Positions 8,706-63,344 of a stretch of DNA of 64,000 nt are shown one piece after another. How positions within the stretch are numbered: position 1 is the stretch's first letter; each line of letters starts with the position of its first letter. The position numbers and the translations under genes were made by a program. The DNA comes from Eledone cirrhosa (Eukaryota), in NCBI GenBank assembly GCA_964016885.1, contig OZ024763.1, positions 11,966,001 to 12,030,000 on the forward strand, read 5' to 3'. The notes below the pieces were generated by a model. That model did no database searches. It was not told where the DNA came from and saw nothing but the letters and a program-made list of their open reading frames with translations.

Positions 8706-9708
8706 ATATCAGTAGTATTTGAAAGAAAGAAAGTAAGAAAGAAAAAAAGCAATGGTGGAATAATTTTTTCCATTTAAAATGTTAGCTGGAAGCGATGGAA
8801 GAAAATTGGTCTCATGTCAGAATAATTGAAGATTTCACAAGAATTCTTCCATTGCTAATCTTTATTTCACTTTAACCCATTCCCTACCAAACCTTTCACT
8901 CTGCTTCATAAAACATGTTTTAGTGTTTATATTTATCTAAAAAAAAAACAAAAAAACTTCCATCATAATTTTATCTAAGAACCTTTCTTAAGTTATGTTC
9001 CAAAAACGCTTGCTTCTATCATATAAAATTGTTTGTTTGAAAGTGTTTATATTTATCTAAAAAAACAACTTCCATCATAATTTTATCTAAGAACCTTCCT
9101 TAAGTTATGTTCCAAACACCCCTGTTTCTATCATGTGAAACTGTTTGTTTTAAAGTGTTTATATTTATCTAAAAATAGACTTCCATCATAATTTTATGTA
9201 ATAACCTTTCTTAAGTTATGTTCCAAACACCCCTGCTTCTATCATACAAAACTGTTTTAAAATGTTTGTTTATCTAAAGAAAAAAAATAAAAAAATTCTA
9301 TAATAATTTTATTTATGAACCTTTCTTAAGTTATGTTCCAAATACACCTGCTTCTATCGTATGATGGGTGTAACTGGCCGCCCATACTGATGTTAAGATA
9401 TTGTTCTCAAAATAAATAATATCAAAATCTCATAGATTTGATATTATGTGAGGTAAAGCCTTTACCATGAAAATATAATTGTATAAATAGAGTAATGTAA
9501 ATGTTATGTGAGATATTATGTGAGGTAAAGCCTTTACCATGAAAATATGATAGTATATATAGAGTAATGTAAATGTTATGTGAGATATTATGTGAGGTAA
9601 AGCCTTTACCATGAAAATACAATAGTATATATAGAGTAATGTAAATGTTATGTGAGATATTATGTGAGGTAAAGCCTTTACCATGAAAATACAATAGTAT
9701 ATATAAAG

Positions 9709-10115
9709 TGGAGGCACATGGCTTAGTGGTTACAGCTTGCAATCGAACTTAGTGGTTAGGCTTGCAATTGAAAGGTTGTGAATTCAATTCTCAGACCGGG
9801 TGATGTGTTGTTTCCTTGAGCAAGACACTTTATTTCACATTGCTCCAGTTTACTCAGCTGTAGAAATGAGATGATAGGACTGGGGTCCCTATCATACCAC
9901 TGCAATTGGTCGTGGAGGTGCCATGGCAAAAAAAGCACCCAGCCCACACTGTAAAGTGGACGTGTAGGCGCCACGGAAAAAAAAAAGCACCCACCACTCA
10001 CTGTAAATGAGGTTGGTATTAGGAAGGGCATCCAGCTGTAGAAATCAAGCTAGAATCAGTTCCCGTCCCACCCTTGCAAGCAGGGAAAAGCGGACGTAAA
10101 ATGATGATGATGATG
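9709..10115 (+). mobile_element. tRNA-derived SINE with RTE-type tail, inserted into a MITE
   Basis: Runs ggaggcacatggcttagtgg ... ggacgtaaaatgatgatgatg; flanked on both sides by the 72-bp MITE unit sequence. Confidence 0.85.
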
Positions 10116-10659
10116 AATGTAGTGTAAATGTTATGTGAGGTAAAGCCTTTACCATGAAAATATAATTGTATATATAGAGTAATGTAAATGGTAAAGAGTT
10201 AAGGGGCTTGGTATGAAATGTGTTAACCCTTTAGATACCAAACCACCCCAAACATTCACTGGGTCTATGAAACAAAACCACCCATTTTAAAGGGTTGCTA
10301 TTTATATTAAAATCTACTCCCATAATTTGATATAAAAATCTTTTGATATGTTATATTTTAAATACCGTCTTGATAATGAAATAATTAATGATTTTAGTAA
10401 ACCCCCTTCAAATTTGTCATGAATTAATTGAAATACAGAAATGTTGTAATGAAAGGGTTAAGCTAGAAAAAGCTGGTTGATTTGGCTGCTGTCAGTATGT
10501 CAGTGTGTGTGTGAGAGAGAGGGGGTGATGTGGGTGTCTTGTTTAAATTTATCACTGCCTGGTGCAGGCAATCTGCCTTGGGTGATGTGGTTTCATTAAA
10601 CAATAAAATAAAATATAAAATCTCAACTGTTGACTTTCAAGCCATCATTTAGAAAGAGA

Positions 10660-13032: not shown

Positions 13033-13072
<40 letters not shown>

Positions 13073-13208
13073 CGAAGGAAATGTGGTAAGGAACCAGGTG
13101 GACCATAATGCACCAAAGTACTCAATACTTGAGGTAGTAGAGTGGGTAATAGGAACCAGTAAGACCCCGACAGCTTTTCCGCTAAGCTCAATTCATTTCA
13201 CCCGCACC

Positions 13209-15361
13209 ATGCGAAAACACAACATCGACTTCTCTACCAAGAACATCCCAATCCCACCAAAAAAACTTTACCTTCGGATGCTCACGCAAAAAATCGATCT
13301 ATTTGCGAAAAGACTTAGATGGAGAACTTTTTTCTATGACAGATATTGCGACAACCAAGACTTCGGCACTAAGGAGAGATTCGGATTTATTACCTACAAA
13401 TCTCCGCCCCTGAACCCCTTGCTCGCACCCTTCGAGAATGACCTCTTCCAACTGGTCAAGAACATTAAATTTAAACCCAGACACAACCGATTCCTACAAA
13501 AACTCCGTAGCAACCTAACAGAGTATGATAACACAAATGACATCATGGTGCATTCGGATAAAACTGGGAACCTATACTTTGTCAACCCTGACAGATACCA
13601 CACACTGATCAGGAGCAGCCTAAACTCCACCTATAAAAAGGCCAACCACTCTTGCATCGAGGACATAAATCGAGATGGACAACAAATTACCTCCAGCCTC
13701 GGGGTCGCCGACCGCACGGAACCTCTAGACCCACGGACACCATACTTCACACTGAAGGACCATAAATCCGATTTTGACCGTAAACCCTCTATCAGGCTTA
13801 TTAACCCAACGAAGTCCGACATAGGGAGAATCAGCAAAAAAATCCTAGACCGCGTGATACCAAAAGTCAAGCAACACACCCGACTTAGCCTATGGATCAA
13901 CACCCAGGAAGTAATCTCCTGGTTCAGCAATATGGAGGATAAACGAGAAACTAAATTCATACAGTTCGACATAGAGAGCTACTATGCTTCAATCACCTTA
14001 CCGCTACTTACTGCCGCCTTGGACTTCGCCGAAACACTTGTGCCCATCACCGACCAGGAAAGAAAAATCATCCTCCACGCCAGGAAGATAGTCTTACTCT
14101 TTGACGACTCTAAATGGATAAAAAGAGCTCCCGACTCACCCTTCGACGTCAGCATGGGCGCCACGGATTCGGCGGAGGTCACAGATCTTATAGGATTATT
14201 CCTAATAGCCAAACTCACTGATATGTTTCCTGCATTCGGTGGTGGATTGTACCGTGATGATGGGCTCCTTACCTTTAAAGGGTACAACCCCAGTAGTACA
14301 GATCGGGTCCGGAAACAATTAATCAGATTCTTCCGCGACTGGGGATTTAAAATAACCCTACAAACGTCCCTGACCCGAGTAAACTTCCTGGACGTGACCC
14401 TCGACCTCGAAAACGACCTGTACTACCCATACAGGAAACCTAATGACAATCTGCACTACATCCACCGCCGATCAAACCATCCTAGGAACATCACAAACAA
14501 CCTGGTCAAAAACATCTCCCTCCGCATATCCCGTTTGTCAGCTAATGAGCGGATATTCGATGAACATGCGCCTTATTACAACCAGGCCCTCAAGCGGAGT
14601 GGTTTCCGGGAGGAAATATCCTACTGTCCAGCTCCCATTAGCGGAACCAGCAGGAGACACCGCCGCTCACGCAATGTAACATGGTTCAATCCTCCCCACA
14701 ACGCAGAGGTGACAACTCCCATCGGGAAACTATTCTTTAGGCTCATTGAAAAACACTTCCCATTACAACACCGCTACCACAACATAATTAACAAAAATAC
14801 CATCAAACTCTCATACAGCACTACACCAAACTTCGCACAAAACATCGTCTCCTCTAACAACAAAAAACTCAACCCCGATAGCAGAAATAACCTAAATAGC
14901 AGTGGAGAACCGACCAGGAGGTGTAACTGCCCGGATAGATCTATTTGCCCACTCGACAATAGATGCAGAGACCGTAATGTGATCTACCAGTGCAACGTGA
15001 GGACGGATACCTCCAACAAACCTATATAGGACTTACCGCATGTGACTTCAAGACCCGGCTATACCAACATAGACATACCTTCCGAAACCCGGCCCGGCGT
15101 CACGCCACTACACTTTCGGGCCACATATGGGACCTCAAGGACAACAACATCACCTATGATCTCACTTGGAGATTACTGTCCAGAGCCAATTCTTACACGG
15201 GAGGACGCCGTCCGTGCAATTTATGCTCGGAGGAAACTTTACAAATGCTGTTTTCGACGGACCAACTCCTAAACAAGAAAGATGAACTGGTCACTGCATG
15301 TAAACATAGATTGTGTAGGACTTACCTCGCCCTCAAACCCCATAATGACCCAGGGGGGTAG
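13209..15361 (+). CDS. PLE reverse transcriptase / GIY-YIG endonuclease polyprotein with one 1-bp frameshift near 15020
   Basis: ATG at 13209. Motifs FSTKNIPIP, SDKTGNLY, TLKDHK, RLINPTKS, FIQFDIESYY, FDVSMGATDSAE, GLYRDDGL, VNFLDV, WFNPP, CNCPDRSICPLDNRC, VIYQ...TYIGLT...FKTRLYQH...CNLCSEE...LLNKKDE. Adding one A in aacaaacctat fuses ORFs 13032-15029 and 14990-15361. Confidence 0.92.
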
Positions 15362-16463
15362 ACTAGGGCTATAACACCCCACTTGCCGATTTTGCAATGG
15401 GTAACCCCTGCTTGCCAAGGAAGACGTAAGATCTTCTTTGTTTTCTTTTATCGCTTCCTTTATTTCCTTCCCCCCTCTCTCCTTAGTCCTTCTACCCCAG
15501 CTCTTCTCCTTTGTCGGCGTCTTTTCTCGCCCACCCGAGGCTGCCCTTTGGCCCCATGTAGCCTTAGTACCCCCACCACCCCCTCCCCTAGTCTATGATA
15601 GATTTGGCGGACTCCGCCCTTTATAGCAGTTGGCTTAGATCCCGGATACCTGCCCCCTTTTTCCGACCGCTCCCACTATTCTCGGTGCCCTCTATATTTC
15701 TTAGTGGCACCTATGCCTTATTTTTTCGTTTCAGTATTTCTTGCTTCGCTTTTCTTCTGGGCAGGGTGGATTCTGAATTTATTTCTCCGTATTCTACCTT
15801 TATTTCGTACAAACTTTCATGTAGCTTGTTTTAGATCTTTTAGAGTTAGCATTAGTATATATTTTTCTCGGGACTCAGAATTATTATCTCGTACAAGTTC
15901 ACTTTGCTGCACTGGGTCATTGCTGGCCCGGGATGGAAACCTTTATTGTTTATTTCGTGGTAGTCTCTTTAGTATGTTGGCCCCTTTTGTTGACCCGTCA
16001 CCGTATCATTTACGTACTTATACCTCTTAAAAGGGTCCTTGCCTATTCCGTCCCACCTAGTTCTTTTACTTATTTCGTTATTTCTTTATTTATTTATTTA
16101 TTTACTTCTTTCTTTCTTTCTTTATTTCATTCTAGCCTAACAATAGCCTGACACCTAGGTCGTAGAATTTAATTTACTTTACTTTTTTCTTTACACTTAT
16201 TTGCTTTTCTTCACTCTCAGTATTTTTTCTTTCCTATTTCTACCCCCCATTGTTCTACCTACCGTTCCGACTTCCTCCCCCTCCCCTGTATCTTCTTTGA
16301 CCTCATGCCCAGCTGTAGCTGGCACTACCAACGCTTGATTGGGTCTACTCCACCCCCTCCCCTCTTTCTCCTACTGGCAGGTTTAGCCACCATCTCCCCT
16401 ACTAATTTGCAACCACAGAATTACTACTGACTTTTGACAATCACTTTGACCATATATGGAATT

Positions 16464-16557
16464 ACCCCTTGAGAAGATCGGCTATTTAAATACCAGGATA
16501 AATTTTCATTTAGTCCAGAATTAGCCGTCGAAACGGCTTGAGCTCAGCTGTCGGGGT
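16464..16557 (+). ncRNA. Type I hammerhead ribozyme (U3-A8 core variant) in the PLE pLTR
   Basis: Stem I ACCCC/GGGGU; core UUGAGAA; stem II GA(U)CGGCUA/UAGCCGUC; GAAA; stem III ACGGC/GCUGU; cleavage triplet GUC at 16550-16552. Confidence 0.8.
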
Positions 16558-16567
16558 CTTACTGGTT

Positions 16568-16619
<52 letters not shown>

Positions 16620-16620
<1 letters not shown>

Positions 16621-16896
16621 ATGCATGCCCTCGTGTGCCCCCAGCAGCACGTTGAGCCAGTGCTTATCTCGGTCATGGCATGAAGCGACTGAGAGTACAA
16701 GACTCACCCCTGGACCGGATGCCAGTCCATCACAGGTTTAAACCCTCAGATATTGCTGGTACTCATTTTCAGTTGAGTATACTGGAGCAACGTGAAATGA
16801 AGTGTTTTGCTCAAGAACACAACACACAACCCAGCCCAGGAGTTGAACCCACAACATTATGATTGTAGGTCCAACACCCTTACCACTAGGCCACAT

Positions 16897-18233: not shown

Positions 18234-18678
18234 CGGTATTAAATAAATGGAAACTATATTTATAAAACCATATTTATTTCATTGTACATATTTCAGGGAT
18301 ACCAAATTAAAATATGATATGCCTTCATCAGACAAAATACAATATATAAACAGTTTTATAAATAATTTTGACATACCCTATTAGATGCAACCATTATTTT
18401 TGGAAGCTGTCTGGATAGCTTCCAAAAATAATGGTTGCATCTAATAGGGTACGTCAAAATTATTTATAAAACTGTTTATATATTGTATTTTGTCTGATGA
18501 AGGCATACCATATTTTAATTTGGTATCCCTGAAATATGTATAATGAAATAAATATGGTTTTATAAATATAGTTTCCATTTATTTAATATCGTATATCTAC
18601 TCCAAAAACTTGTCGAGTGCTTTATATCAGTTATAAAATATTTACTTGTTGTATCCCAACAATTTTAAATAGAACTTT

Positions 18679-18682
<4 letters not shown>
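18231..18682 (+). mobile_element. PLE-derived asymmetric palindrome (family C): 181-bp inverted arms plus 88-nt tail, in (TA)n
   Basis: 18231-18411 is the near-perfect reverse complement of 18414-18594; each arm carries a hammerhead; tail at 18595-18682. Confidence 0.85.
18486..18550 (+). ncRNA. Type I hammerhead ribozyme (family C); mirror copy at 18275-18339 (-)
   Basis: Stem I UAUUUUGU/AUGAAAUA; CUGAUGA; stem II AGGCAUACCA/UGGUAUCCCU; GAAA; minimal stem III; AUA triplet. Confidence 0.72.
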
Positions 18683-20760: not shown

Positions 20761-21030
20761 CATATATATATATACATATATATACATATATACATATATA
20801 TACATATACATATATTTCACCAGCATAACAACAACAACATCCCACTCACAATACATATTCTACACAATTTCCCACCTATCTAATCTGTGTTGAAGTGGGT
20901 GTGTTTTGTGTATTTATGGAATGTATATGTACACACACACACACACTATAAATGTACAAATATCTAGGTGGGAGCAGGGTCACGGAATCAGTGTGTGTGT
21001 GTGTGTGTGTATCTGTGTATATATATATAA

Positions 21031-21258
21031 GTAGAAGTTGTATCTAATTTGTTGGAAGTCCGACAAACCTATTTCCACTATCCAGTGAATTTCCAACCGA
21101 TAAGCTATGATTTTCATGGGTATGTCTCTATCTATATTTATAAAACAAACTTTGTATTTTATCTGATGAAAGCGTACCAATGTTGTCTTGGTTGCTCTTG
21201 AAATATATATAATAAATATGGTTTTATAAATACAGTTTCCATTTATTTAATATCATTG
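21031..21258 (+). mobile_element. PLE family C remnant (inverted tail end plus pLTR with hammerhead core at about 21155-21218)
   Basis: tattttatCTGATGAaagcgtaccaa...ttggttgctcttGAAAtatatataataaata; ends at the same point as the 18594 arm. Confidence 0.7.
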
Positions 21259-21267
21259 TATATATAT

Positions 21268-21608
21268 CATCATCATCATCATTTCATTTTACGTCCGCTT
21301 TTTTCCTTGCTTGCAAGGGTGGGACGGGAACTGATTCTCGCTTGCTTTCTACAGCTGGATGCCCTTCCTAACACCAACCTCATTTACAGTGAGTGCTGGG
21401 TGCTTTTTTGCCGTGGCACCTCCATGACCACTTTGCAGTGGAATGATAGGGACCCCAGTCCTCTCATCTCATTTCTACAGCTGAGTAAACTGGAGCAATG
21501 TGAAATAAAGTATCTTGTTCAAGGAAACAACACATCACTCGGTCTGAGAATTGAACTCACAACCTTTCGATTGCAAGTCCAATGCTCTAACCACTAAGCC
21601 ATGTGCCA
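21268..21608 (-). mobile_element. tRNA-derived SINE with RTE-type tail
   Basis: Same family as 745-1157. Confidence 0.85.
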
Positions 21609-27960: not shown

Positions 27961-28425
27961 TGACTCTTAAGAGCTCCTTTGTGCTTTGACAGGTTTTGTT
28001 TTTAGTCCTGCAGGATGTCCAAAGTCACCCTCCTCACCAAGAAACCTTGGTGGGGTTGCCAGTTTAGTCGCCAATGATCCGACCATGGGACAGGTTGTAC
28101 TGGGATACATGTTACCAGTAGCACCAACTGGTGACCTGACATAATGGCCATCCAAAATCACCGGGAGAGATGACCCCTTAGCCTTTGTCAAGGCAGAATT
28201 CTAGGAGAAGGAAAACTCTGATATAACACCTGCAACCCTGATGGTATCCAATGATGTTGACTTGTTCTTCTTTTTGGTAAATATCATCTTGGTTAAGAGA
28301 GTGGGACTGGCTTTGTGCAGTGCCTTTGCTCACTATAAAAGCTTCACGGCACAGCCATTGCTTTATATCTGGAGATCTCTCTGCACTTGTCGTCACATGG
28401 TACCATGGGCCCAGCACTATGTGTC
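27961..28425 (+). mobile_element. Non-autonomous RTE-derived element (5' part)
   Basis: RTE 5'-UTR-like motif ctaggagaaggaaaactctga; near-identical to 48785-49195 (-) and 51541-52062 (+). Confidence 0.7.
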
Positions 28426-29096: not shown

Positions 29097-29247
29097 AACG
29101 AAGGAAGTGTGGTAAGGAACCAGATGGACCATAACGCACCAGAGTACACAATACTTAGAGTAGTAGAGTGGGTAATAGGAAGAGTCAGGACCCCGATCTA
29201 GCTGTCGAAACGGCTGGAGCTCGGCTGTCGGGGTCCCCACTCTTTTC
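29097..29247 (+). mobile_element. PLE family A short inverted insertion in (TA)n
   Basis: Inverted tail (aacgaaggaagtgtggtaagg...) joined to the direct pLTR end (gtcgaaacggc...gtcggggtc), homologous to both ends of the 13-16.5 kb element. Confidence 0.85.
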
Positions 29248-36752: not shown

Positions 36753-36946
36753 ATATTAATAAATGGAAACTATATTTATAAAACCATATTTATTTCATTA
36801 TACATATTTCAAGGACACCAAAGCAAATTATGGTGCGCTTTCATCAGATAAAATATAATATAGATCAGTTTTATAAACCAATATTGACATACCCTTAAAA
36901 GAATGCGACCATGTCTGATCCCAACAAATTAAATATAACTTCTACA
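36749..36946 (-). mobile_element. PLE family C remnant with hammerhead at 36791-36855 (-)
   Basis: Minus strand tattttatCTGATGAaagcgcacca...tggtgtccttGAAAtatgtataatgaaata; inverted tail end at the right. Confidence 0.75.
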
Positions 36947-36962
36947 TATGATGATGATGATG

Positions 36963-38432: not shown

Positions 38433-38866
38433 AGTGTGTTGAAACGGCAACAGCTCAGCTGTCAGGGTCCTGGCTCATTCTTAAAACCATACTCTACTAC
38501 CCCAAGTATTGAGTACTCTGGTGAGTAAGGCTGAATCCATCTTAATTTATGTATATATATACAGGGTCCTGAATCTTTTCATATATATATATATATATGA
38601 ATATATATACATATATGTGAATATACAAAAACCTGGCTAGAGGGGTTTGGGTTCATCTTTAAATGATGGACCTCCCAGAAAATATGACGAAAGAATTGTA
38701 AGAGCTGGGAGGCTGTGCTGGAAACGACCAGTCCAGCCCATGCAAGCATGGAAAAACGAATATGAAATGATGAGGATGATATATATATATTTGATGTGTG
38801 TCTGTGTATTGTTTTATAAGATGTGGGAATCCTAAACATAAAATAAGTACATGTTATAACATGCTA

Positions 38867-45470: not shown

Positions 45471-45473
<3 letters not shown>

Positions 45474-45652
45474 GAGCTTCTACAGGACTAGAGCTGTATC
45501 ATTCGTGAGAAATCATCAGGAGCTGCCTGATGATTTCTCACGAATGAAACAGCTCTAGTCCTGTAGAAGCTCTTCTATATTAAAACTTTTATACTCTGCT
45601 ATGTATTGAGTACCTTACTTACTGTGGTTACCTCCGATTCAACCCGGAATAA

Positions 45653-45655
<3 letters not shown>
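45471..45655 (+). mobile_element. PLE family B asymmetric palindrome with hammerhead core, in (TA)n
   Basis: Arms 45471-45520 and 45526-45575; CUGAUGA-UUUC-UCAC-GAAU-GAAAC core; tail 45576-45655. Confidence 0.8.
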
Positions 45656-45747
<92 letters not shown>

Positions 45748-45992
45748 GCGTGAAGTCTTTTCAGGCATATGCTGGCCAGTCGCCGAAGTAAATAACTCGA
45801 TATTTACATCTCCTGTGGATTTTATCTGAAGAGAACACGTTGACAGATGTTATAATACGTATATTATTACTCACCAACTGTACACCCCCCTCCACACATA
45901 TATATTTATCTACATGTGTGATATTGATGGATTCAAGAATGAATACTCAATACCTAAGTAGAGGGATCTGTCTTGTTACTCTGGCATTTAGG

Positions 45993-46202: not shown

Positions 46203-46392
46203 TAATGGAAAAATTTGAACAGGAACAAAACAGAGAGGCAGTACAACGAATGTTTATTAATTTCACGCTCTGGAGAGTGGGGTGGTGGTGGGGAGTGACG
46301 TTTCGGGCATAAGCCCTTCCTCAGGTGAGAAGTGTGTGGGAACAGAGTTCAAAGGGTGTGTAGGGGAGTGGTGGAGAGACATATAGCGAAAG
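46203..46392 (-). mobile_element. 3' end of another PLE family with a minimal hammerhead-like motif at 46296-46328
   Basis: Minus strand CTGAGGAagggcttatgcccGAAACgtc followed by AATAAA; (TA)n flanks; related fragment at about 22270-22345. Confidence 0.6.
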
Positions 46393-46404
46393 ATATATAT
46401 ATAT

Positions 46405-46637
46405 AAAAAAAAGTATGACCCTGGCGGCAGAGCTCAATATATATATATATAGGAAAATGTATGACCCCGACGGCAGAGCTCAAACGTTTCGACTGCTATT
46501 TCTGGATTAGTCCAGAAATAACAGTCGAAACGGCTTGAGCTCTGGTCATACTTTTTCCTATTACCCACTCTACTACCCTAAGTATTGAGTACTCTGGTGC
46601 GTTATGGTTCATCTGGTTCCTTACCACAATTCCTTTG

Positions 46638-46640
<3 letters not shown>
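46405..46640. mobile_element. PLE family A palindrome plus tail (with an extra fragment at 46405-46437; another at 46069-46129)
   Basis: aggaaaatgtatgaccccgacggcagagctcaaacgtttcgac...tagtccagaaataacagtcgaaacggcttgagctc...cctattacccactc...cctttgtt. Confidence 0.85.
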
Positions 46641-47034: not shown

Positions 47035-47123
47035 TCATATACTCCAGAAAGCTGTTGAGTGCTCTGAATCAGTTATAAACATTTATATTTGTTGAATTAC
47101 CAACAAATTGAATATCCCTTCTG

Positions 47124-47157
<34 letters not shown>

Positions 47158-47377
47158 AAAGTTCTATTTAAAGTTGTTGGGATACAACAAGTAAATATCC
47201 AGACAGCCTCCAAAAACAATGGTTGCATTTTAATAGGGTACGTCAAAGCTATTTGTAAAACTGTTATATATTGTATTTTGTCTGATGAAGGCACACCATA
47301 ATTTAATGTGGTATCCCTGAAATATGTATAATGAAATAAATATGATTTTATAAATATAGTTTCCATTTATTAATATC

Positions 47378-48460: not shown

Positions 48461-48784
48461 ATGTGTGTACATAGTTTAAGAGTGATGTGTAGGAGGTGGA
48501 AGTGGTGTGTCGAAGGCATTAAAGAATCTATGATAGCGAAGACATATAGAAAGATGTTATTCAAAGAGAATCTTCCAGATCATTCCATAGAGAAGAAAGC
48601 TTCAAAAGTCTTTCATTCTCTCTCTCTCTCTCTCTCCCTCTATACATACATAATATATCATCATCGTTTATCTTCCATGCTGCCATTATATATATATATG
48701 TATATATACACACACACACACACACATCGTATATCATCATCATTAACGTCCATCTTCCATGTTACCATTATATATATACATACA

Positions 48785-49195
48785 TGGTGGCTGCCAACTC
48801 GTTTTCGAGTACGGCCACTACTTTATATCCATGTAGGAGAACCCCTACCGATGCGCTGAACGAGTGTGACTTTTTAGTCCAGCCAGCGACTTGAAAACTC
48901 TGGTACAAACACTACACTTCTGACAATTATTGACACATAGTGCTGGGCCCATGGTACCATGTGATGACAAGTGCAGAGAGATCTCCAGATATAAAGCAAT
49001 GCCTGTGCCGTGAAGCTTTTATAGTGAGCGAAGGCTCTGCACAAAGCCAGTCCCACTCTCTTAACCAAGATGATATTTACCAAAAAGAACAAGTCAACAT
49101 CATTGGATACCATCAGGGTTGCAGGTGTTATATAAGAGTTTTCCTTCTCCTAGAATTCTGCCTTGACAAAGGCTAAGGGGTCATCTCTCCCGGAT
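48785..49195 (-). mobile_element. Non-autonomous bipartite RTE-derived element
   Basis: Minus strand has the RTE 5'-UTR-like motif, then a terminal C2H2 remnant CSVCTRVFKSLAGLKSHTRSAHR and a short 3' end. Confidence 0.7.
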
Positions 49196-49320: not shown

Positions 49321-49707
49321 ATCATCATCACCGTTTTACGTCCGTTCTTCCACGCTAGCATGGGCTAGACAGGTTGTCCTGCTGTGGGCAATGCCAGGTC
49401 GGGTGACCTTGTCTTGCTCATACGGGAACTAATTCTGGCTTGATTTCTACAGCTGGATGCCCTTCCTAACACCAACCTCATTTACAGTTAGTGCTGGGTG
49501 CTTTTTTGCCGTGGCACCTCCACGACCACTTTGCAGTGGCATGATGGGGACCAGAGTCGCTATCATCTCATTTCTACAGCTGAGTAAACTGGAGCAATGT
49601 GAAATAAAGTGTCTTGCTCAAGGAAACAACACATCACCCGGTCTGAGAATTGAACTCACAACCTTTCGATTGCAAGGTCAATGCTCTAACCACTAACCCA
49701 TGTGCCT

Positions 49708-51540: not shown

Positions 51541-52062
51541 CGGGTCGTTGGCGATTAAACTGGCAACCCCACCAAGGTTTCTTGGTGAGGAGGGTGACTT
51601 TGGACATCCTGCAGGACTAAAAACTCTTAAGAGTCAATGGCCATGCAAAATCACCGGGAGAGATGACCCCTTAGCCTTTGTCAAGGCAGAATTCTAGGAG
51701 AAGGAAAACTCTGATATAACACCTGCAACCCTGATGGTATCCAATGATGTTGACTTGTTCTTTTTGGTAAATATCATCTTGGTTAAGAAAGTGGGACTGG
51801 CTTTGTGCAGTGCCTTTGCTCACTATAAAAGCTTCACAGCACAGGCATTGCTTTATATCTGGAGATCTCTCTGCACTTGTCGTCACATGGTACCATGGGC
51901 CCAGCACTATGTGTCAATAATTGTCACAAGTATAGTGTTTGTACCAGAGTTTTCAAGTCGCTGGCTGGACTAAAAAGTCACACTCGTTCAGCGCATCGGT
52001 AAGGGTTCTCCTACATGGATATAAAGTAGTGGCCGTACTCGAAAACGAGTTGGCAGCCACCA
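51541..52062 (+). mobile_element. Non-autonomous RTE-derived element with an inverted 5' segment
   Basis: 51541-51636 is the reverse complement of 27961-28081 (with an internal deletion); the rest is collinear with 28144-28425 and continues to the 3' end. Confidence 0.75.
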
Positions 52063-52459
52063 TATATATGATCAACAGACATACACAATGTATGTGTATT
52101 TGGATAAAGAAAGCTATCCTTGACTGTAACTCTGCTACTTGGTGTATTTCAGTGCAGAGAAGCAACAACAAGAGTAAGAACAACACTACCACCACCTTCA
52201 CCACAATCACTACTACCACAACCACTACTACCCCCTTCACCACCACTGCTACCACCACCACCACCACCATAGTAATGGTGGTGCCAGTCAGCTACAGAAA
52301 GAAAGGTTGTTGGAAGCAGTGGAAGAAATCTGCTGTTTAGTTGGAACTATATTCACAGTTGTATCTCGTGTGTGTGTGTCTGTGTCTATGTATGTGTCAG
52401 TGCGTGTGTGTGTCTATGTATGTGTTAGTGCGTGTGTCTGTGTGTCTATGTATGTGTTA

Positions 52460-53930: not shown

Positions 53931-54377
53931 AATGATATTTAATAAATGGAAGCTATCTTCATAAAACCATATTTATTCTATTATATATATTTCAAGGGTA
54001 CCAAAGCTTTGGTACGCTCTCATCAGATAAAATACAAAGTTTGTTTTATAAATGTTGACATAACCAAGAAAAGATACCTTCACGGTGGTTCAAGTTTTTC
54101 TTGGATAGTCATCAAGAAAAACTTGAACCGTGAAGGTATCTTTTCTTGGTTATGTCAACATTTATAAAACAAACTTTGTATTTTATCTGATGAGAGCGTA
54201 CCAAAGCTTTGGTACCCTTGAAATATATATAATAGAATAAATATGGTTTTATGAAGATAGCTTCCATTTATTTAATATCATTGAATATTATACTCCAGAA
54301 AAGCTGTCGAGTGCTCTGAATCAGTTATAAACATTTATATTTGTTGAATTACCAACAAATTGAATATCCTTTTTGCT
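53931..54377 (+). mobile_element. PLE family C asymmetric palindrome (arms about 170 bp plus about 95-nt tail)
   Basis: 53931-54103 is inverted to 54113-54282; tail to 54377, then (TA)n. Confidence 0.85.
54179..54239 (+). ncRNA. Type I hammerhead ribozyme (family C variant)
   Basis: Stem I UAUUUUAU/AUAGAAUA; CUGAUGA; stem II containing GUACCAAAGCUUUGGUAC; GAAA; palindromic AUAUAUAU stem III. Confidence 0.72.
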
Positions 54378-54665
54378 TATATATATATATATATCAGGAT
54401 GGAATCAGTTTGAAACTGGTTAGACCATTACTCAACAGAGTACTCAATACTTGGGGTAGTAGAGTATGGTTATATTATAAAGAGCTTTTATTGTATGTGC
54501 ATAGAGTGAGCGTCTCTAACGGCTCAGCTTATACTATTTCCCTGTGTCTAAGCTTAGTCATCAGGCAAACCATTCTTATAACATTATCTACACTTCACCT
54601 TCCTTAGACGACTTAGTTGAAAACTCGTGTGTACTAGAAACAGCTCATATATCTATGTATATATT

Positions 54666-55430: not shown

Positions 55431-56129
55431 TTATGTGTGTGTTTTTATATATGTTTATGTATGTTATATGTCTATCTCCCATGCTGGTAAGAGTTAATCC
55501 CAGTTGTCGTGTTCTGAGGTTGCATATATCATGTGATCTTGTCTTGACTTGACTTCGTTTCTGAGGTTGTATATATCATGTGATCTTGTTGTGAGGTTGC
55601 ATATATCATGTGATCTTCTGAGGTTGCATATATCATGTGATCTTGTCTTGACTTCGTTTCTATAGCTAGCTACCCTTGATACCTCTAACCACAGTGTGTA
55701 CTGTGAGCATTTATTTTATCATGGTACCAACACCGCCACTCTACAGGATGTTTTTATCATGGCACTAACACTAGATAATATATAAGAGATATATAGTAGT
55801 GAATTATAAGGCACAAATATACACTTTCATCTCTTTCTATGTATTATGTAATTGCCTTTATATGTGTTTCAATGGTATGTGTTATACAATCGTTAGTTAT
55901 GATCTCTTCAGAGAGTTCTCACCGGTATAGTCCATATATCATCATCATCATACGTCCATTCTTCCATGCTAGCATGGGTTAGACGAGTTGTCCTCTTGTA
56001 GGCAATGCTAGAGAAAACATTTTTTTGTAGTTAGCAGTGGTAGTAGCTCCCTGAACTTCTTCCTTCCTGTCTCTGCTGCTAATTCGATCACCCAGGTAGC
56101 AGAAGCTGTCTACTGTTTCTACCATATAT

Positions 56130-56175
<46 letters not shown>

Positions 56176-56388
56176 CCAAAAGTTAAGCAAGGTTCATTGA
56201 TTAATAAATGAATATAGTTTTACAATAGATTAGAAGCACTCAACAGTAGGAAGTTTTCCGGAGTTATTAATATTAATAAATAGATCAAAATAAAATATAT
56301 TTTGTTTATATTTTGATATTTTGATTACATTGAATGTCTATATTTATTATTATTTGAATTAATATATATATATATATTCTTTCTTCTC

Positions 56389-56447
<59 letters not shown>

Positions 56448-56522
56448 GTGGTTTTTAGAACCTTTGTTTTTTTCCATTATCTTTGTCTTGTGCACTCCCA
56501 TTTTTTTTATTTACACACTTAT

Positions 56523-56850
56523 GGAGGCACATGGCTTAGTGGTTAGAGCATTGGGCTTGCAATCGAAAGGTTGTGAGTTCAATTCTCAGACCGGGTGATG
56601 TGTTGTTTCCTTGAGCAAGACACTTTATTTCACATTGCTCCAGTTTACTCAGCTGTAGAAATGAGATGATAGGGACTTAGGTCCCTATCGTGGAGGTGCC
56701 ACGGCAAAAAAGCACCCAGCACCCACTGTAAATGAGGTTGGTGTTAGGAAGGGCATCCAGCTGTAGAAATTAAGCCAGAATCAGTTCCCGTCCCACTCTT
56801 GCAAGCAGGGAAAAGCAGACGTAAAATGATGATGATGATGATGATGATGA
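56523..56850 (+). mobile_element. tRNA-derived SINE with RTE-type tail
   Basis: Full head-core-tail structure ending in (tga)n. Confidence 0.85.
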
Positions 56851-59755: not shown

Positions 59756-60260
59756 ATCATTAATTCTCCCTCCTTTTTTTTAAAAACTATTTCTTTAGAA
59801 GAATCTTTTGCAGATTCATGAAAATTTAATCTTTTAAATTCTCTTTTAAATTTACAGTTGGTGGCGGTGGTGGTATTGGTTGTGATGGTAGTGATGGTTG
59901 TGGTGGTGGTGTTGGTAGTTGTGGTGGTGGTGGTGGTGTTGGTAGTGGTGGTTGTGGTGGTGGTGGTGTTGGTTGTGATGGTAGTGATAGTTGTGGGGGT
60001 GCCGGTAGTGATGGTGGTTGTGGTGGTGGTGGTGGTGTTGGTTGTGATGGTAGTGATAGTTGTGGGGGTGCCGGTAGTGATGGTGGTGGTGTTGGTAGTG
60101 GTGGTGTTGGTAGTGGTGGTGTTGGTAGTGGTGGTTGTGGTGGTGGTGTTGGTGGTTGTTCTCACAGTTATTGTTATCACAACTACCACCATCACCACCA
60201 CCAATGCCAACATCACCATATATATATAGAAGTGGTTACACAACAGTTAGTTCACCATAC

Positions 60261-60298
60261 CGAGAACAATTGTTTCACCTTAGCGGATCCTCAGCTCG
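60261..60298 (-). ncRNA. Minimal type I hammerhead ribozyme
   Basis: Minus strand CGAG-CUGAGGA-UCC-GCUAA-GGU-GAA-ACAAUUGU-U-CUCG: stem I CGAG/CUCG and palindromic stem III. Confidence 0.75.
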
Positions 60299-60466
60299 TA
60301 ATGGACATGGTTATAGGGAACAGGAAGGACAACCGTGCAAACGCGCATGCGCAGAAATGATCACTTCATACAAGCAATACTAAATTACGTGCGAGAGGTG
60401 TAAGGGAGATAACGCTGAAAGTCCGAAAGTTTCTAGTTGATAAGAAAATTAGGATGCTGTTGTAAT

Positions 60467-62089
60467 TCAATCCGGAGCTTTGTAGTTATGTAAGAGGTGT
60501 TTCCCGACAGGTGGACAACGTGTGAAGAATTCATTTCTCGAGTTTAGGCAATCGCTATTGCGTAATCTCTTTAGAATATTTATTCGTTCATCAATGCATA
60601 GTCCACACGACTTAGTGATGGCTTTCCATTGAATGGAGTAGTCTATACTTGAGTCCTTGAGGGACCATACGTGGCTCGCGAGTTTCGTGGATGAATGTCT
60701 GTCCGGGTACCTAAAGGTCGACTGGTGGTTCAGGAAGCGTACCTTAAATCGGCCCTCCGCCATACCCACATAAGATTTGACCTCCTGTGGTTGATATGGT
60801 CGGTTGGAAGTGACCAGAGCTTCATAAACTACAGCGGGTGTGTTGCATTGCTGTTGAAGGGGACAAGCTTCGGGCTTACGGCAAGAGCACCCTGGAGGGG
60901 TGTTGCTCTTAGGGCTGTTGGTGATGTGACCCTTCATGTTCTTAGCGCAGGAGTATCATAGTTTTACTTTTGTGTCGGTTAAAAATGGAGCGGTATTTAT
61001 GACCTATGGGAAAGTGTTTTTTTTTTTTGCCTACATTGGTTTTAACGTTGGGAGGAGAGAACCAGATAGTTTTTCTATTGTTACACTTTCTTTTCTTATT
61101 GCTGTTGTTGTTAGTGGGAGAGTAAGTGATAGGTTGCGAGAAGCCGCCGTTAGCTAACGCCGTGTTATAGTAGGGTACCGCTCTGTCAAAGATAGCCTTA
61201 TTAGAGGAGAGGTTTGAGATTCTAGTACTGATGTTCTTTACGAAGTTTCTAAGAACAGTGGGAGAGTGGCATGAGTCCTTGTGAATGTAATTGAGTTTTT
61301 CGTTAAGCTTATGAAGTCGCATACGTCAGCACTGTCAAACGATCCCATGGAGACGTCGAATAGGTCTGAAGTTGTTGGCTTCTTTGCCCAGGCTACTCCG
61401 TTGTTGAAGAGGAGGGTTTTCCAGCAGTGAGCGATGATTTCCCTGTCTAAACCATGGACGGTAGTGTAAGTGGTGGCAAAGTCCAACGCTTTGTTTAACA
61501 GGGTCTCTGAGATCGACGGGTAAAAATCAACAATGTCAAACTGTGTGAACTTCGCTTTTTGGGATTTGAAGGAGTTAAACCAGTTAATTAGGGAGTCGCT
61601 GTTCTCCCACTGGGGTAGGTTGGACTTGGGCCTAAGGGTCTTAACTATGTTTCTAAGTATGGCCTTACTGACTAGTCCCATATCTGTGCGTGCCGGGTTT
61701 ATTAGTCTACACGTGGGGTTAGCAGTAAAGTCTACCTTGTGATCTTTCAGGGTGAGGAACGCCTCCCGCTTAGCTAGAGATTGTAGCTTCTTATCTACCT
61801 TAAGGTCGGCGGAAAGTTCCTTGGCTTCTGTATTAATGTCGCGGTAGGCCACAGGGTTAGCTTTCTTATATCTGGAAGTAATAGCGTTATGGGCCAGGTG
61901 GCGGAAAGTGGTGGTGTCGACCTCGTAAATATTATTAGTTTTGTCGGAAAGAACGAAGGTGTTATTAGAAGACCTAAATATCTTAATATCATTTGTAAGT
62001 TTAGTTTGAAAGGTGTTAGTCGCTAACATTTCCTTTCGCAAACACCCTAAGTCAAGAAGGTCCGCCTCAAAAGGAGCAAGTTCAGTTAC
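60467..62089 (-). pseudogene. PLE RT / GIY-YIG pseudogene (frameshifts; about 80 aa deletion removing YRDD)
   Basis: ELAPFEADL, SDKTNNIY, TLKDHK, CRLINPA, FTQFDIVDFYPSI, FDVSMGSFDSADV, [deletion], NYIHKDSCH, WFSPP, CSCRKPEACPLQQQC, VVYEA...SYVGMAEGRFKVRFLNH, CGLCIDE, LNSRNE. Confidence 0.88.
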
Positions 62090-62149
62090 CTAACTCGTCC
62101 CATGGACTGAGAGCTCTACCACTACGGATATTACCTTCCAGTGTTCTAC

Positions 62150-62220
<71 letters not shown>

Positions 62221-62224
<4 letters not shown>

Positions 62225-62394
62225 GAAGGAAGTGTGGTAAGGAACCAGGTGGACCATAACGCACCAGAGTACTCAATACATAGGGTAGTAGAGTGGGTAA
62301 TAGGAAAATGTTTATCCCCGACAGCAGAGCTCAAGTCCAGAAATAGCCGTCGAAACGGCTTGAGCTCTGCCGTCGGTGTTAAACATTTTCCTAT
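62221..62394 (+). mobile_element. PLE family A short inverted insertion in (TA)n
   Basis: Inverted tail plus agtccagaaatagccgtcgaaacggcttgagctc...ttttcct. Confidence 0.85.

Positions 62395-63050: not shown

Positions 63051-63344
<294 letters not shown>

Follow-up and report, generated by a model that had tools for sequence, protein, structure and literature searches.

A bulged hairpin beside the copy ends of Hydra-clade Penelope-like elements

The origin of the tail and of the inverted ends in Penelope-like element (PLE) insertions has been a puzzle for two decades. In other retroelements, the 3' stem-loops of LINEs and SINEs and the R2 3' UTR are short RNA structures thought to be read by the reverse transcriptase (RT) protein, and hepadnaviral epsilon and the template-boundary hairpin of telomerase fix the point at which an RT starts or stops on an internal template. 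For PLEs, the sole in vitro study found two internal starts and left their determinant unidentified: the Poseidon protein cuts and extends both strands of its target, and the tail is the sequence between two internal start sites on the RNA (Frangieh et al., 2024, PMC11167929). Both starts fall in a single AC-rich stem-loop that lies within the ORF, at 111-118 nt, and the accessible sections of that paper define no conserved determinant.

The Hydra clade of PLEs is diagnosed by a C-terminal GIY-YIG endonuclease, RW(K/R) and DKT motifs, a CxCx5C linker, CxxC and CxH in the endonuclease, a Type I hammerhead near the 3' end and insertion into (TA)n (Craig et al., 2021, PMC8557442). The elements described here have in common with that clade the C-terminal GIY-YIG domain, RW(K/R), DKT, CxCx5C, the 3' hammerhead, the (TA)n targets and an inverted copy plus tail. 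In the accessible parts of the same paper the PLE tail is given as 30-40 bp with no structure noted, whereas the tails considered here are about 60-95 nt long and have two hairpins as their bounds. Naiad PLEs carry an N-terminal GIY-YIG endonuclease and a CxC linker before the RT, and have no canonical hammerhead.

The window, a 64,000-nt stretch of Eledone cirrhosa DNA, is microsatellite-rich animal sequence that contains two elements with coding capacity:

13072..16571, + strand: E1, an autonomous Hydra-clade element, RT then C-terminal GIY-YIG
13072..13175, - strand: inverted pLTR end and tail of E1, containing hairpin 1 at 13120-13143
60231..62089, - strand: E2, a second Hydra-clade element, decayed and 5'-truncated, hammerhead core at 60273-60294
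62087..62152, + strand: inverted tail of E2, with a variant hairpin at 62094-62111 (1-nt bulge, first upper pair G-C)

The E1 ORF (13209-15361) has one frameshift near 15020, its 5' UTR is cut at about 13174, and its pLTR end has a hammerhead-like fold with a mutated core at about 16465-16550. The hammerhead of this family, called A below, has an unusually long stem II loop of about 40 nt, and most short family A copies retain just its 3' half. In both E1 and E2 a YIG/YVG motif lies downstream of the RT, and the endonuclease is hence C-terminal. E1 carries RWR at 37, DKT at 117 and CxCx5C at 572, as well as CxxC and CxH; E2 carries DKT, CxCx5C and CxxC, with its RWK region truncated and no match to CxH. 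Each of the motifs RW(K/R), DK(T/S) and CxCx5C is present in 111-117 of 120 homologs, and hammerhead cores occur in E2, in families B and C and in subfamily A2. By these sequence features, the window elements are Hydra-clade PLEs. The preliminary description of this DNA had called them Naiad PLEs, a label excluded by the C-terminal endonuclease and the presence of hammerhead cores. A Pfam search with five ORF pieces of the window gave no match, and in an RT tree from a quick search, composed without reference members or other clades, E1 and E2 form long branches. An AlphaFold model of the RT part of E1 (pLDDT 88.5) finds telomerase RT as its closest structure (3du5, E 3.9e-9).

A common hairpin in dissimilar tails

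Insertions in the window are flanked by (TA)n and usually follow the layout (TA)n - inverted pLTR end - direct pLTR end - tail - (TA)n, with a bulged hairpin in the tail on the element sense strand. The preliminary description had listed twelve such hairpins, every one of which is present where it was placed. The hairpins and the insertions that carry them are as follows:

46451..46640, + strand: family A fold-back non-autonomous insertion in (TA)n, with inverted pLTR end, direct pLTR end and tail
46567..46590, + strand: hairpin 1 of family A, with a 4-bp lower stem, a UU bulge on the 3' side, a 4-bp upper stem and a 6-nt loop
42141..42164, + strand: hairpin 1 of a family A tail-only insertion, covariance-model match
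62271..62294, - strand: hairpin 1 of family A, covariance-model match, previously unlisted
63201..63224, - strand: hairpin 1 of family A, covariance-model match
29141..29174, - strand: family A hairpin with one lower-stem mismatch, 19.2 bits, previously unlisted
38491..38514, + strand: hairpin 1 of an A-related subfamily, covariance-model match
54395..54646, - strand: subfamily A2 insertion, hammerhead core 54537-54564, hairpin 54442-54465
45945..45964, - strand: hairpin of a further A-related tail, 3 lower pairs only, 9 bits
45471..45654, + strand: fold-back insertion of family B; hammerhead core at 45527-45549, hairpin at 45593-45611 that includes a G-U pair, tail reaching 45654
18234..18681, + strand: family C fold-back insertion, hammerhead core 18494-18534, hairpin 18599-18618
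53931..54377, + strand: family C fold-back insertion, hammerhead core 54187-54223, hairpin 54292-54312
47041..47060, + strand: family C hairpin in a tail-only piece, covariance-model match
56238..56264, - strand: candidate hairpin of a further family, 11.5 bits, E 1.4, previously unlisted

The hairpins at 38491, 54442 and 45945, first placed in family A, belong instead to related subfamilies that differ in tail and pLTR. Outside the hairpin, the A, B, C and E2 tails cannot be aligned with one another, in keeping with the earlier claim of dissimilar tails that have the hairpin in common, and the compensatory A-U to G-C change between the hairpins at 18599 and 54292 is as first described. The hairpin has been lost from two of three family B tails (about 28780 and 45050), and the candidate at 56238-56264 has an imperfect upper stem and a (TA)n run 62 nt downstream.

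A descriptor of the fold (CTC, 3-5 bp, loop of 3-8, 1-2 pyrimidines, GAG; both strands) matches 14 times in the window, against a mean of 2.6 (maximum 9) over 100 block-wise dinucleotide shuffles. Thirteen of these matches lie in PLE tails and represent about five families, whose copies are not independent; the remaining one, at 16762, is a chance match in a tRNA-like repeat. A covariance model built from non-window copies only ranks 12 window tails first, at 15.4-28.6 bits, with the hairpin at 46567-46590 scoring 27.9 bits. The E2 hairpin deviates from the consensus and is missed by the model.

The fold is thermodynamically weak. Folded alone, the hairpins reach -1.0 to -6.7 kcal/mol, the pairing probabilities of the window hairpins in context range from 0.00 to 1.00, and the hairpin is absent from the minimum-energy fold of the 83-nt family A tail. 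For nine tail regions the z-scores lie between 0.47 and -1.55 and do not single out the tails. On the sense strand G-U exceeds A-C by 2:1 in one count and by 5:1 in another, neither significant; the 5:1 excess is at most suggestive of folding as RNA.

Evidence of another kind comes from relatives. With the E1 protein as query, 2364 homologs were identified among 8000 scored candidates, the best 120 of them at 39-53% identity. An alignment of 41 homologs led to 77 metagenome loci (from the best 80 of at least 256 confirmed) and to 17 loci in genome bins, which are probably animal DNA; the search of viral contigs yielded no relative. Downstream of the hammerheads of these relatives the motif recurs as GCTC - variable - T(T/C/A) - GAGCAC, forming a 4-bp GCUC/GAGC stem, a 2-nt 3' bulge and a variable upper stem, in elements just ~40% identical to the window protein. 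The loci L078-L094 are Hydra-type retroelements with (TA)n flanks that lie in contigs of bacterial genome bins, most likely as animal host DNA carried into the bins.

To guard against circularity, hairpins were chosen by sequence anchors alone, with no upper pairing asked, and collapsed to 19 families; 3 of 66 anchor hits, overlapping or ambiguous, were left out. Under this selection the first upper pair is formed in 19/19 families (14.4 expected), the second in 17/17 (9.5 expected) and the third in 15/15 (7.4 expected), each with p=0.0002. Upper pairing is exclusive to the register with a 2-nt bulge, and other bulge registers fail. Across 29 aligned copies 98.9% of cells are paired, with double changes at five of seven pairs; none of 500 shuffles matches this value and slid controls give 15-58%. 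On a quick tree of 32 RTs, pair 1 has 6 changes on each side, 6 of them joint, and pair 2 has 11 and 11 changes with 12 joint. Since the joint changes are repeated on the RT tree, they do not go back to a single inherited change. Compensation in the lower stem is seen in two relatives (L080 and L039) and in the window (A-U for G-C). The covariation proposed as a check on the hairpin is strong, with phylogenetically repeated double changes across Hydra relatives.

The hairpins are also visible in the consensus file of Craig et al. (2021, PMC8557442), unremarked in the accessible text. Judged by eye, three of six published Hydra consensus sequences have clear hairpins, and one of these has both: Hydra-2_Amil from a coral, and Hydra-1_Ajap and Hydra-2_Ajap from a sea cucumber. 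Hydra-1_Crog has a degenerate hairpin, Hydra-1_Amil stops before the hairpin site, and in Hydra-1_Obim no clear hairpin is apparent by eye in 175 nt of 5' UTR. Four 9-mers of the 3' arm occur seven times in that supplement, four times in Hydra hairpins; the other three occurrences, in Naiad and Chlamys consensus files, lie in no hairpin, a check limited by line breaks and trimmed tails, and the hairpin earlier expected in Naiad tails is not borne out there.

On this comparative evidence, the hairpin is a real clade-wide cis-element of Hydra PLEs. The idea of a conserved cis-element holds in this form, carried by the covariation and by a near-fixed distance to copy ends, and fails in its Naiad assignment and in the geometry of a LINE 3' stem-loop. 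The hairpin is apparently undescribed, and the twin-hairpin arrangement in full-length elements is new here. Consistent with the preliminary description, which knew of no account of it, we found none in Rfam or in the open full-text literature; subscription papers (older Penelope biochemistry, Repbase reports) could mention it. Rfam gave no match in 20 of the 94 relative loci, and among 150 of its 240 window matches, which include miRNA-model noise at microsatellites, none covers a hairpin as such. The accessible portions of Li et al. (2026, bioRxiv 10.64898/2026.07.22.740005), PMC7229834, PMC4209133 and PMC3846280 contain no description of the hairpin.

A second hairpin and the ends of copies

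Full-length relatives usually carry two hairpins, in the order hammerhead - hairpin 1 - hairpin 2 - ATG. Hairpin 1 starts 46-70 nt past the hammerhead core, the two hairpins are 55-83 nt apart from start to start, and 15-51 nt separate the end of hairpin 2 from the ORF. A script applied to the 42 ORF starts that have 120 nt or more of upstream sequence finds both hairpins in 26, one in 9 and none in 7; the last group comprises two false starts, one variant hairpin, one 3' half and three with nothing. Hairpin 2 retains the lower stem, the bulge and the first upper pair, and its upper stem is often missing; the first upper pair is formed in 13/13 (p=0.08) and the next in 6/11, a poor covariation past the first pair.

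A second hairpin is predicted for the window's own families. None is seen in the window, which has no tandem junction, and the letters between the tail and the 5' UTR are not visible in the reads; reads over 13072-13600 do not reveal a second family A hairpin. A loose end that precedes 13174 (4 contigs) has a 3-bp arm pair and a TC bulge at the expected place; its lower stem is not intact, so it is not counted as hairpin 2.

Copies end before one hairpin or the other, and we refer to the end before hairpin 1 as site A and to that before hairpin 2 as site B. When terminal copies are set against longer ones from their own family, those with a tail end 2-4 nt upstream of hairpin 2 in 8/8 comparisons (L003, L004, L008/L009, L012, L015, L029, L080 and L090), and tail-less copies end 1-6 nt upstream of hairpin 1 (11 rows, six families). 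In the window, tail-less copies of family A end 4-5 nt before the stem, family C ends 2-9 nt before it and family B 8-12 nt, the left arm of 45471-45654 lying at 12 nt. The insertion at 46451-46640 has site A at about 46560, and its 80-nt tail (46561-46640) terminates at site B. Junctions at most ends contain TA or AT, and TA microhomology leaves all ends uncertain by a few bases. Left out of these counts are nine hairpin 1 rows at 12-15 nt and three hairpin 2 rows at 17-18 nt, which set unlike subfamilies against each other or depend on weak seeds (two of the pairs give 3 and 4 nt under gapped alignment), as well as 30 hairpin 2 rows of L001 that are TA-repeat matches.

Because the ends track the hairpin that lies 3' of them, the constant quantity is the distance from end to hairpin, and not the 45-70 nt downstream given in the preliminary description. 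The downstream interval is in fact slightly different, as 12 of the 13 tail hairpins precede a (TA)n run by 38-66 nt and one precedes a short TA run; the constant spacing is to the upstream end. The proposed likeness to a LINE 3' stem-loop does not survive this geometry, which is reversed: the end that tracks the hairpin is 5' of it. Moreover, since ends precede either the first or the second hairpin, the tail corresponds to the segment from one of these ends to the other.

In genomic reads of this species, coverage of the tail is about 10,000-fold, compared with roughly 20-350 for the E1 ORF, and tail sequence is some 50-100 times deeper. Reads also connect the tail end (13072) with the 5' UTR (13174) across strands, 17 from 3 starts in X20 and 20 from 5 in X21. 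The tail thus forms the beginning of the 5' UTR of the following unit.

(TA)n stands directly before hairpin 1 in L090 (2860-2900), where the full-length copy starts at the hairpin, and directly before hairpin 2 in L001 (455-477); the published consensus of Hydra-1_Ajap also starts at hairpin 1. Copies of unit length may begin and finish at site A, as they would on a circular template; alternatively, sites A and B may themselves serve as targets. The inverted tail of E2 (62087-62152) stops 7 nt before the stem, almost exactly where tails begin, and at that point adjoins the truncated ORF without any intervening pLTR sequence. Family C copies at 21030-21060, 36930-36962 and 47155-47200 start with a short inverted piece of the far tail end, cut before hairpin 1.

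Proposed positioning of the reverse transcriptase and alternatives

We suggest that the two hairpins place the RT at two internal start sites, one site per hairpin, and that target-primed copying begins there, a reading to which we assign a probability of roughly 0.6. Each hairpin would hold the RT on the RNA and so fix the start of copying just 5' of itself. The protein would nick both strands of a (TA)n target, one RT beginning at site A and another at site B, on a template RNA that continues past the hammerhead, either by tandem read-through or as a circle. The two cDNAs would then hang from opposite sides of the break and, after 5' truncation, be joined head to head, giving (TA)n - inverted end - direct end - tail - (TA)n. 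On this view the tail would span the interval from one start to the other and carry hairpin 1 as a passenger. The invariant lower stem, the bulge and the first pyrimidine-purine pair may be the parts read by the protein, leaving the upper stem and loop free, and TA at the start site may aid annealing of an AT-rich primer. We infer in this scheme that RNA is the folding strand, that the protein binds it and primes there, and that two enzymes act on one RNA. Because copying must cross the hammerhead site, the template would have to be a circle or a tandem RNA left uncleaved, in line with the proposal of Cervera and De la Pena (2014, PMC4209133).

This arrangement has in common with Poseidon (PMC11167929) two internal RT starts with the tail between them, an AT-rich target and extension of both strands. 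Hydra elements differ in having, just 3' of each end, a covarying hairpin of its own, located in the 5' UTR. As with LINE and SINE stem-loops, the structure is common to autonomous and non-autonomous partners. Those stem-loops, however, are part of what is copied and precede a start at the 3' terminus, whereas the ends of Hydra copies map 5' of the hairpins, so that the hairpin, which is duplicated, would not belong to the copy begun at it. Epsilon and the telomerase boundary element are likewise bulged or short hairpins, and the predicted fold of the window protein is closest to TERT. The Hydra hairpin differs from both in lying 3' of the copied stretch, with no sign of protein priming or of templating by the bulge.

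The most serious rival is that the hairpin is read as DNA by the endonuclease, which we consider unlikely. A single-stranded DNA hairpin, formed in a displaced or second strand or in an existing genomic copy, would be bound by the GIY-YIG endonuclease and cut 2-6 nt upstream, either trimming, at site A or B, an intermediate made of longer tandem units or directing new insertions into old copies. The geometry matches that of SsnA, a GIY-YIG nuclease that cuts a few nt upstream of a single-stranded DNA hairpin (the NTS) and that resembles the present case in its conserved stem sequence and free loop (PMC11893778). SsnA is a bacterial single-domain nuclease with no RT, which binds its hairpin by sequence and shape, and serves as a precedent only. 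The endonuclease of D. virilis Penelope needed the tail to recognise plasmid DNA (cited in PMC11167929), and Craig et al. (2021, PMC8557442) attribute the tail to EN-mediated resolution. Cutting at the hairpin would also suit the (TA)n runs that immediately precede hairpin 1 of L090 and hairpin 2 of L001, and Watson-Crick covariation is the same for RNA and DNA. Against these points, two internal RT starts that bound a tail have been seen directly, in another PLE and on RNA templates (PMC11167929), and head-to-head fold-backs with a one-sided tail are the simple outcome of two primed cDNAs. The slight G-U excess (5:1) disfavours folding of first-strand cDNA, and extrusion of such weak stems from duplex DNA would hardly be expected.

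It is less probable still that the hairpins are 5' UTR protein-binding sites, concerned with RNP assembly or translational control, and that the nearby ends merely reflect annealing of TA to (TA)n. Both hairpins do lie in the 5' UTR, hairpin 2 ending 15-51 nt ahead of the ORF, and TA or AT is found at most end junctions. Yet these AT-rich regions hold many other TAs, and 8/8 ends fall 2-4 nt before hairpin 2; hairpin 1, moreover, is kept by fold-back families that are non-coding. That the motif plays no part as a structure, being either a sequence passed on by descent or a fold that arose by chance, as the weak energies, the z-scores of 0.47 to -1.55 (nine tails) and the decayed copies of family B might suggest, is very improbable. 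It is contradicted by the covariation counts, by repeated register-specific double changes across proteins about 40% identical, by flanks that cannot be aligned, and by a model from other organisms that picks out the window tails.

Positioning of the RT by the hairpins invites a more specific proposal, which we offer tentatively and at somewhat less than even odds: the twin hairpins could act as a molecular ruler, on which two RT-endonuclease subunits, one per hairpin on the same RNA, prime both sides of one (TA)n break. If true, the ruler would yield the inverted repeat and tail that mark Penelope-like insertions, and the hairpin would be a transferable signal of 20 nt by which a telomerase-sister RT initiates internally at a defined position. 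If bound by the RT, the hairpin would be an RNA recognition module of telomerase's sister group and a possible handle for template copying from a defined start. A covarying hairpin found clade-wide near both ends makes the origin of the PLE tail directly testable, and provides a rule for locating the true ends and the non-autonomous partners of Hydra elements.

Other insertions and repeats

Hammerheads of the window also occur apart from the tail hairpin, in (TA)n insertions at 46205-46392 (- strand) and 55796-55933 (- strand). Among the relatives, hammerhead ends of another type (L023:341-400, L086:2083-2140 and L089:2794-2850) all terminate in TTGTGCAA just before (TA)n, and this terminus is possibly the end signal of another PLE clade.

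Two repeats of other kinds were encountered. An abundant SINE-like repeat with a tRNA-like end is present at 742-1157, 9706-10116, 21268-21607, 49323-49696 and 56522-56845, with Rfam tRNA matches above gathering at 21544-21601 and 56532-56589. Finally, 414-nt inverted repeats at 48780-49193 and 51654-52067, 98% complementary and 2.5 kb apart, have a third, partial copy at 27998-28425 and are possibly a DNA transposon.
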